Source: a virus
Lineage: Duplodnaviria; Caudoviricetes
Direction: 5' to 3' (one strand)
IMG/VR virus record: IMGVR_UViG_3300032218_002273
Coordinates: 17,764-81,763 of that record
Length of the DNA: 64,000 bases
Numbering within the stretch: position 1 is the first letter of the stretch; each line of letters starts with the position of its first letter. A program made the translations under genes and the position numbers. The notes beneath the pieces were generated by a model. That model was not told the origin of the DNA, did not search any database, and saw only the letters and a program-made list of their open reading frames with translations. Below, one piece after another: positions 26,238 through 26,710 of the stretch.

Positions 26238-26253
26238 TGCACCGATCGTGCCA
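26238..26253 (-). promoter_or_regulatory. Sigma-54-type -24/-12 promoter
   Basis: TGGCACGATCGGTGCA with correct GG..GC spacing, about 60 nt upstream of ATG 26179. Confidence 0.6.
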
Positions 26254-26430
26254 AGTGGCAAGTTGTTGAAATTATTGGACAACAAAATCTGTTGAGTGTT
26301 GAAAGTTTGGACGATTTCCGAGAAAACCCAATGATTTCGCAACTGTTAGGTTTTTTGACAGGTGACAAAAGTTTGGACAGTCCAAGTGATTGAAATTGTG
26401 GAGTTTATCGGGATTACAGCTAGATAAAGC

Positions 26431-26505
26431 TAAGTGGTTGATAATACAGAGAGTGTTAATAAAATTACAGAGTTAACTATAAGGTCTAGTGATATCAAGT
26501 AGTTA
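26431..26505. promoter_or_regulatory. Two perfect IHF consensus sites
   Basis: TATCAACCACTTA (minus, 26431-26443) and TATCAAGTAGTTA (plus, 26493-26505) match WATCAANNNNTTR. Confidence 0.6.
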
Positions 26506-26558
26506 GTGTAAGTGCTGGATAATCATTAGGTTTATTGTAAAATCAAATAGATATATTT

Positions 26559-26710
26559 TGGCATGAATTGTGCAAGCAAGTAATGGCATGAAGCTTGCAT
26601 TAACAATTATCGTGCCATTATATTTGGCATGGAGTGTGCATTAGCAAATGTCGTGCCAACTTTTTTTTGGCATTGTTCTTGCATATAATAAACTTGGCAT
26701 GGAACTTGCA
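26559..26710. promoter_or_regulatory. Array of seven sigma-54-type boxes
   Basis: Plus: 26559, 26584, 26625, 26668, 26695; minus: 26643-26658 and a weaker one at 26602-26617. Confidence 0.7.

Follow-up and report, generated by a model that had tools for sequence, protein, structure and literature searches.

The 64,000-nucleotide stretch of DNA analyzed here, referred to as the window, comprises bases 17764-81763 of G000, an IMG/VR record of 81,763 bp (IMGVR_UViG_3300032218_002273) that represents an uncultured phage of ~82 kb with terminal repeats of 123 bp and 33% G+C. Between positions 26238 and 26710 of the window lies a control region carrying a dense array of 16-mers, hereafter called boxes, that resemble the -24/-12 promoter elements read by sigma-54 (RpoN). 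Sigma-54 is the only bacterial sigma factor that binds promoters yet needs an ATP-driven activator to start transcription, and its use by phages is, to our knowledge, barely documented.

Genomic context of the array

The leftward gene block of G000 occupies positions 1-26179 of the window and encodes a DNA polymerase A, a DnaB-type helicase, ERF, a PD-(D/E)XK nuclease, a deoxynucleoside monophosphate (dNMP) kinase, rIIA and a DUF932 protein. To the right of the array, the ~600 nt from 26720 to 27330 hold only short open reading frames (ORFs) and have a G+C content of 43-48%, compared to 33% in the genome. A small DUF6321 gene (27450-27746, plus strand) and further leftward genes follow, with structural genes from 38296 onward. 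The large terminase gene (38984-40438) lies ~12 kb from the array and that of the helicase 13 kb from it. An Rfam search of the window gave no family at gathering score and only chance-level matches within 26100-27800, the folding of 26711-27440 was indistinguishable from that of shuffled sequences on both strands, and a tRNA search gave none. The DNA of the array region has no match among cultured phages, no relatives of a 108-aa neighbor gene product were found in viral contigs, and the ORFs that overlie the arrays are spurious.

Organization of the boxes

Eight exact matches to TGGCAY-N7-GCW occur in the window against 1.05 expected, and the stricter pattern TGGCAY-N5-KTGCW retains the same eight against 0.15 expected, a count reached by no shuffle. 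They begin at 26559, 26584, 26625, 26668, 26695 and 28304 on the plus strand and at 26238 and 26643 on the minus strand, and the remaining 17.7 kb of the G000 genome contains no further box. A preliminary description of this DNA, made from the letters without database searches, had reported a dense array of eight boxes, seven of them within 150 bp, with one bearing GT at -12 and one fronting the first leftward gene, and all of this is borne out: 26238-26710 contains seven exact boxes plus the GT variant, the 152 bp of 26559-26710 hold seven with that variant included, and box 26238 precedes the first leftward gene, with 59 nt between it and the ATG (26179). The boxes combine -24 GG and -12 GC elements at the exact spacing with consensus flanks (TGGCAC-N5-TTGCW), as a sigma-54 promoter should.

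Four of the boxes are arranged as two copies, 41 bp apart and 82% identical, of a 34-bp face-to-face dyad (26584/26602 and 26625/26643), in each of which a plus box and a minus box face one another across 2 bp; the remaining boxes are single (Table 1). The start predicted from box 26238 falls one base upstream of a 5-bp hairpin (26226-26212), and that from box 26695 on the second base of a G9 run. Both of these boxes have a same-sense gene or RNA downstream at a workable distance, and a search for sigma-70-type promoters ahead of the leftward gene gave none on the minus strand.

Table 1. Features of the control region, in window coordinates
Feature	Position	Strand	Remarks
Small hairpin, then T-run	26212-26226	-	At predicted 5' end of leftward transcript; weak (-6.7 kcal/mol, z -1.2)
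Single sigma-54-type box TGGCACGATCGGTGCA	26238-26253	-	Exact match; faces first leftward gene; predicted start ~26227
15-nt direct repeat CAAGTnnTTGAAATT	26259-26273, 26383-26397	+	Repeat family D4
Palindrome TTGGACAGTCCAA	~26372-26384		Read by eye
Perfect IHF-consensus sites WATCAANNNNTTR	26431-26443 (-), 26493-26505 (+)		Motif match
Single box TGGCATGAATTGTGCA	26559-26574	+	Exact match; repeat family D1
Dyad 1	26584-26617		Plus box 26584-26599 TGGCATGAAGCTTGCA, 2-bp gap, minus box 26602-26617; repeat family D3
GT-variant box TGGCACGATAATTGTT	26602-26617	-	GT replaces GC at -12; read directly
Dyad 2	26625-26658		Plus box 26625-26640 TGGCATGGAGTGTGCA, 2-bp gap, minus box 26643-26658 TGGCACGACATTTGCT
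Single box TGGCATTGTTCTTGCA	26668-26683	+	Exact match; aligns with box TGGCTTATCGATTGCA of G001
Last rightward box TGGCATGGAACTTGCA	26695-26710	+	Exact match; predicted start ~26721
G9 run at predicted start	26720-26728	+	Opens the ~600-nt short-ORF stretch

The lone box at 28304 (TGGCACTCACTTTGCA) forms the 5' arm of a 9-bp-stem hairpin (28304-28332; TGGCACTCA...TGAGTGCCA; -14.5 kcal/mol, z -4) with TGGCA/TGCCA ends. Because the stop of the leftward ORF 28337-28504 immediately precedes this hairpin, the latter is a probable terminator, and the box is probably not part of the array. The box at L121:15387, antisense within a nuclease gene, likewise probably does not belong to the system.

Conservation in related phages

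A related phage, G001 (81,292 bp), was located through its neighboring DUF932 protein, which is 54% identical to that of G000. At the corresponding place it bears two dyads, one with a 2-bp and the other with a 1-bp gap, followed by GGGGGGTAGG as in G000, and dyad 2 of the window aligns with one of them; the surrounding non-coding DNA of the two phages has diverged. In the more distant relatives L221, L234 and L236, with capsid and portal proteins 41% and 43% identical to those of G000, the dyad includes a 16-mer identical to box 26695, and in L234 a G-rich tract follows it.

The genes that neighbor the dyads differ among phage groups. A DUF6321 gene stands 850-890 bp from the first dyad in 10 loci, namely G000 and nine HMO-2011-type contigs, and the DNA in between is unrelated, with small genes in the latter and non-coding sequence in G000. 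The DNA similarity of those nine loci to HMO-2011-type marine phages is patchy. DUF6321 was rejected as a marker of relatedness, being common in pelagiphages and cyanophages that lack the array.

Distribution among viral contigs

An exact-pattern scan of IMG/VR for the dyad, written as TGGCAY-N5-KTGCW, 1-2 bp, WGCAM-N5-RTGCCA, returned at least 120 loci with at least 142 sites, and the reversed pattern none. All further counts on dyad-bearing loci and genomes are counts among the matches listed (at least 120 loci). These loci span 30-65% G+C and contain 544 boxes, versus 6 for the reversed control (1.08 Mb). Single boxes add another 145 sites no farther than 400 bp from a dyad, at a density of 1.48 per kb compared to 0.12 elsewhere in these loci, which marks the 16-mer, and not the dyad alone, as the unit. 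Among 446 distinct boxes of other viral contigs, the positions left free by the pattern favor T at -27 (0.68), G or A at -20 (0.62 and 0.33) and T at -15 (0.91), and in these base preferences they match the sigma-54 consensus (-27 T, -20 R, -15 T).

An alternative is that the dyads are hairpins of RNA or single-stranded DNA that serve, for example, in processing, priming or termination, and not as sites for protein binding to double-stranded DNA. Both dyad 34-mers of G000 do have a folding energy below that of shuffled sequences (-10.9 and -14.0 kcal/mol; z -2.6 and -3.1), and the lone box at 28304 sits in the clear 9-bp hairpin described above. However, in the 142 dyads listed the variable 5-nt stretch of one half does not complement that of the other, which places the constraint on sequence rather than on a hairpin; the parts that do pair never co-vary, their sequence being fixed, and show no compensatory stem changes. 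Single boxes, moreover, cannot form a hairpin, and this alternative is considered highly improbable.

The dyad is a virus-specific cis-element that is widespread in viruses, typically with units of 33-34 bp repeated every ~41-54 bp. No published description of clustered or dyad sigma-54 boxes in phages was found in the literature searched. Known encounters of phages with this system include a sigma-54-like promoter, P015, in Pseudomonas phage YuA (PMC10914365) and a sigma-54-type regulator encoded by Bdellovibrio phage phi1422 (PMC3391216).

Search for a common reader

All ORFs of 18 complete array-bearing genomes were clustered by blastp and three rounds of profile search with hidden Markov models (HMMs). 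Only four families occur in more than 7 of these genomes: DNA polymerase A (15), the DnaB-type helicase (13), the large terminase (13) and an unannotated family of ~540 aa (12), and the three with annotation do not include a sequence-specific regulator. A shared candidate for a cognate initiator was found neither in the 18 genomes nor in the commonest neighbor families within 4 kb of the dyads, although an initiator that is very divergent or supplied by the host could have escaped this comparison. The sigma-54 DNA-binding domain (Sigma54_DBD) had no match above cut-off in 51 records or in G000. GP88 (PF17338) was rejected as a common reader, as it is encoded by no more than 19 of the 52 records and 7 of the 21 that are complete. 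A motif that is invariant across unrelated phages, with no common phage reader detected, points to a conserved reader supplied by the host; the only such reader with this specificity known to us is sigma-54, which, judged from the sequences, is the best supported identity for these sites.

Flanking signals

The preliminary description had also placed two perfect and two one-mismatch sites for integration host factor (IHF) between the array and box 26238, as elements flanking it. The perfect sites are present (Table 1). The other two are real by eye, but they coincide with the two copies of the 15-nt repeat CAAGTnnTTGAAATT and may thus be a different element. As to IHF flanking in general, it is weak in the window, where the motif is not enriched (5 found versus 9.9 expected over its whole length), whereas the 120 listed viral loci show a 4.7-fold enrichment of IHF-like sites at distances of up to 250 bp from a box, A+T content being equal. 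The CAAGTnnTTGAAATT repeats, together with the palindrome TTGGACAGTCCAA, are candidate regulator or enhancer sites; the stretch that holds them is not conserved in G001. The sole other part of the control region that can be aligned between the two phages lies upstream of the array (window 26415-26475; L121 ~6690-6760) and features motifs of the form ATTAYAG-N0-4-TGTTRA, in 2-3 copies in G000 and 2 in G001, which may be the operator of a phage regulator.

G-runs of at least five occur on the outward strand within 40 nt of the dyads in 21 of 240 flanks, compared to 5 for C-runs, and several of them resemble GGGGGGAGGGGG. G-tracts such as CATGGGGGGAGGGGGTGG stand 10-30 nt outside the dyads, again on the outward strand, in L262, L282, L294, L264, L312, L245, L275 and L220; we take these to resemble the primer-forming element of mitochondrial conserved sequence block II (CSBII). 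Beside the arrays of the HMO-2011-type contigs L229, L267 and L320 recurs TTAACAACTTGGTAA (variants TTACCAACTTGGTAA and TTAACCAACTTGGTTAA), which contains TTAACAACT, a signal that these contigs may share with the unrelated phage G000.

Candidate host

A structured RNA is common to G000 and Bdellovibrionota, with its hairpin confirmed in L003, L019, L042, L058, L084, L099 and L110, and this clade is a candidate for the host. All five tested Bdellovibrionota genomes that share the RNA contain rpoN, with 11-23 exact boxes per genome of 3.3-4.5 Mb, and a Gram-negative host that relies on RpoN is plausible for G000. The G+C content around the RNA is 40-54% in these genomes compared to 33% in the phage. 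The loop of this RNA is absent at up to 2 mismatches from other array-bearing phages; the copy in G001 has more mismatches and is visible in alignment only. A second, minus-strand copy of the RNA in G000 shares its intergenic region with a near-consensus sigma-70 promoter recognized by eye (37846-37875, plus strand; TTGACA, 17 nt, TAATAT).

Sigma-54 polymerase as the proposed reader

The preliminary description had read the array as sigma-54 sites serving either early transcription or as a decoy for host polymerase. The first part of this proposal finds support at the level of sequence, in the elements, spacing, conservation and consensus of the boxes. Sigma-54 holoenzyme binds such boxes stably as a closed complex, and the host sigma-54 RNA polymerase holoenzyme would be their most likely reader. 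Box 26238 would then function as the promoter of the leftward replication and early gene block, and box 26695 with the plus boxes preceding it as promoters of the non-coding region that opens rightward with the G-run, and each dyad would, in compact form, allow loading in both directions. Since the phage encodes no recognizable activator, an activator ATPase of the host, or an as yet unrecognized phage factor, would be required for firing. It is slightly more likely than not that sigma-54 holoenzyme binds these sites, when use as promoters and use as a pure sponge are taken together. That the host polymerase binds them and the outward-facing boxes act as promoters is advanced tentatively, with slightly less than even confidence.

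Textbook sigma-54 promoters with IHF-assisted enhancers are typified by glnAp2, nifH, Pu and pspA. Like these, the array presents TGGCAYR-N4-TTGCW with GG and GC 10 bp apart, nearby IHF-consensus sites and candidate upstream repeats, and its outward boxes front a gene and a non-coding RNA region. Unlike them, it packs many boxes into 150 bp in both orientations, with dyads of fixed 1-2-bp gap, mostly in one cluster per genome, with no activator gene found and in a layout absent from 802 bacterial genomes.

Several observations weigh against sigma-54 promoters. The dyad pattern has no match in those 802 genomes, which are alpha- and gammaproteobacterial, nor in 5 others, and hosts thus seem not to use such a layout. 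Two boxes that face each other 1-2 bp apart would probably exclude one another, each would have to fire through its partner, and the inward-facing halves of the dyads have no same-sense gene or RNA at a workable distance. G000 has no match to the activator ATPase domain PF00158, and 50 other array-bearing records, of which 19 are at least 90% complete, have none at E ≤ 0.001. Eight Bdellovibrionota copies of the structured RNA show no sigma-54-like box within 1 kb upstream, several having by eye a sigma-70-like element there instead; the array was thus not inherited with the RNA, and the notion that it drives this RNA as in the host is not supported. The array is also absent from nine cultured relatives whose hosts are known, HTVC023P, HTVC027P, DSL-LC04, HMO-2011, CRP-1, Slicky01, PW916, AXL3 and Almagne and from two Manatee Spring metagenome phages. 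Finally, most of the 18 complete genomes hold one box cluster each instead of boxes distributed among operons. In G018 (C1:49424-49662) this cluster repeats an identical 34-bp dyad six times with a period of exactly 41 bp, apparently through recent tandem amplification. Such a pattern is more suggestive of iterons than of ordinary promoters.

A separate observation concerns a 390-aa frame in G001 (C1:59658-60077), which passed the PF00158 cut-off only on the sum of two weak matches (21.9 bits, best E 0.0025). As the model also responds in 14 of 14 control genomes, archaea included, this frame most likely represents a generic AAA+ ATPase.

A possible role as iterons or packaging sites

The likeness to iterons leads to a second reading, in which the boxes would be iterons that belong to an origin of replication or to a site for packaging or partition and are read by a dedicated, sequence-specific protein of phage or host, their similarity to sigma-54 promoters being coincidental or convergent. 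Iterons and the R-sites of cosB, with an IHF site, are known from phage and plasmid origins and from lambda, and IHF sites occur at both lambda ori and cosB. The arrays resemble these systems in their tandem, often dyad-symmetric units at a single locus (period 41-54 bp, 1-6 copies), in their variable copy number and in the IHF-like sites enriched nearby; in addition, several lie at a skew minimum or near genome ends. G034 has four dyads and two single boxes, G015 and G020 a lone dyad each, and boxes also occur outside the main cluster in G021, G036, G048 and G050. The cluster is commonly found at the junction of leftward and rightward genes in the 18 complete genomes, and its distance from the cumulative GC-skew minimum is at most 2% of genome length in 7 of them and at most 7% in 11, a coincidence confounded with the switch in gene direction. 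Also in keeping with an origin are the family A DNA polymerase of 15 of these genomes and the DnaB-type helicase of 13, as well as the absence of the layout from bacterial genomes and of the array from cultured relatives.

A role in packaging is suggested by the position of many dyads. In 32 loci other than that of G000, the dyad is closely followed by the gene of a small AT-hook protein and then by those of the large terminase and portal, an adjacency expected of a cosB- or pac-type site that would fit binding by a phage protein such as the small terminase. The AT-hook protein has ~150 aa, and its gene stands 200-580 bp past the dyad, ahead of that of the large terminase (e.g. L321:3450-3896); it may itself be a small terminase or, among these loci, the protein that reads the dyad. 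Dyads also lie within 700 bp of a contig end in 16 of 35 whole-contig loci, and in four contigs classed as complete and linear the array is 0.5-2.3 kb from an end. In G036, four boxes lie within the terminal repeat of ~1165 bp (C1:1-1165, 92684-93848), in addition to the internal array at 80808-80993.

Iterons are, however, private to the initiator of their own element, whereas the motif of the arrays is the same across unrelated phages in which no common initiator or other reader was found, even with iterated HMMs. If an initiator were private, it and its site should drift jointly, yet the motif is near-invariant over 30-65% G+C and its free positions follow the sigma-54 consensus; many boxes, moreover, are single. 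In G000 the array is remote from both the terminase and the helicase genes, and it coincides with a local skew minimum only, the global one being 11 kb away. On balance, this second reading, the main rival of sigma-54 promoters, is less likely than not.

Possible sequestration of host polymerase

If sigma-54 holoenzyme does bind the boxes, the array could instead be a pure DNA sponge that is itself untranscribed and parks host holoenzyme in inactive closed complexes, thereby damping the sigma-54-dependent programs of the host. According to Bonocora et al. (2015; PMC4591121), E. coli sigma-54 holoenzyme binds promoters in a transcriptionally inactive state and shows widespread, conserved intragenic binding. 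As with those inert sites, the boxes need not drive a downstream gene and the holoenzyme could sit on them inactive; the E. coli sites, many of which are intragenic, are single, scattered and chromosomal, whereas the array is clustered, dyad-symmetric, intergenic and viral. The phages have no clear activator gene, their boxes outnumber the genes to be served and point both ways, and the seven exact boxes in 473 bp of G000 compare with 11-23 in an entire candidate-host genome. The tandem amplification of identical units in G018 further suggests selection for dose.

Dyads would nevertheless be a poor design for a pure sponge, because paired sites that probably exclude each other would halve the usable capacity, and the single dyad of the complete phages G015 and G020 would make a feeble one. 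Placement at divergent junctions and the conserved downstream G-run argue for a positional role, and there is no evidence that lowering sigma-54 benefits a phage. A pure sponge is considered improbable, and the same small likelihood attaches to the corollary that parking would rise as the phage DNA replicates.

Possible transcription-primed origins and a comparison with early promoters

The G-runs and the frequent family A polymerase would permit an origin primed by transcription. Known examples include the primary origin of T7, with two promoters and an AT-rich stretch, RNA II of ColE1, and the mitochondrial light-strand promoter (LSP) with the G-run of CSBII. The arrays share with these the promoter-like sites that have, no more than tens of bases downstream, a G-run on the strand of the transcribed RNA (G000, G001, L234), and family A polymerases and DnaB-type helicases are frequent among the phages that carry arrays; they differ in that R-loops and priming would be hypothetical for the arrays. 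We know of no activator-dependent sigma-54 promoter at any origin. There is perhaps a slim chance that the arrays are replication origins of a broad set of phages with family A polymerase, in which parked sigma-54 polymerase would fire outward into the adjacent G-run and the G-rich transcript, retained as an R-loop or G-quadruplex hybrid, would prime the phage polymerase. It is just as improbable, though conceivable, that such an origin would be the bacterial-virus counterpart of ColE1 RNA II and mitochondrial LSP-CSBII, gated by an activator-dependent sigma factor.

The promoters A1-A3 of T7 are strong early host promoters near the genome end. The arrays likewise hold several tandem host-type promoter sequences where early transcription would begin, some of them 0.5-2.3 kb from the end of a linear contig; A1-A3, in contrast, are of the sigma-70 type and all face one direction.

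Implications for phage biology

If the boxes are sigma-54 sites, viruses represented by at least 120 contigs from several unrelated groups have each placed such a block in their genome, often at the main control junction, while encoding no clear activator. This would imply an unrecognized way to fire or exploit a parked polymerase, the use of a host stress activator as an infection switch, or the capture of a host factor. If they are not, a very conserved DNA-binding factor would have to read the same 16-mer across phages of 30-65% G+C, which would be equally unexplained. In addition, the dyad element is an inexpensive means of recognizing control or origin regions by sequence in many uncultured phages.

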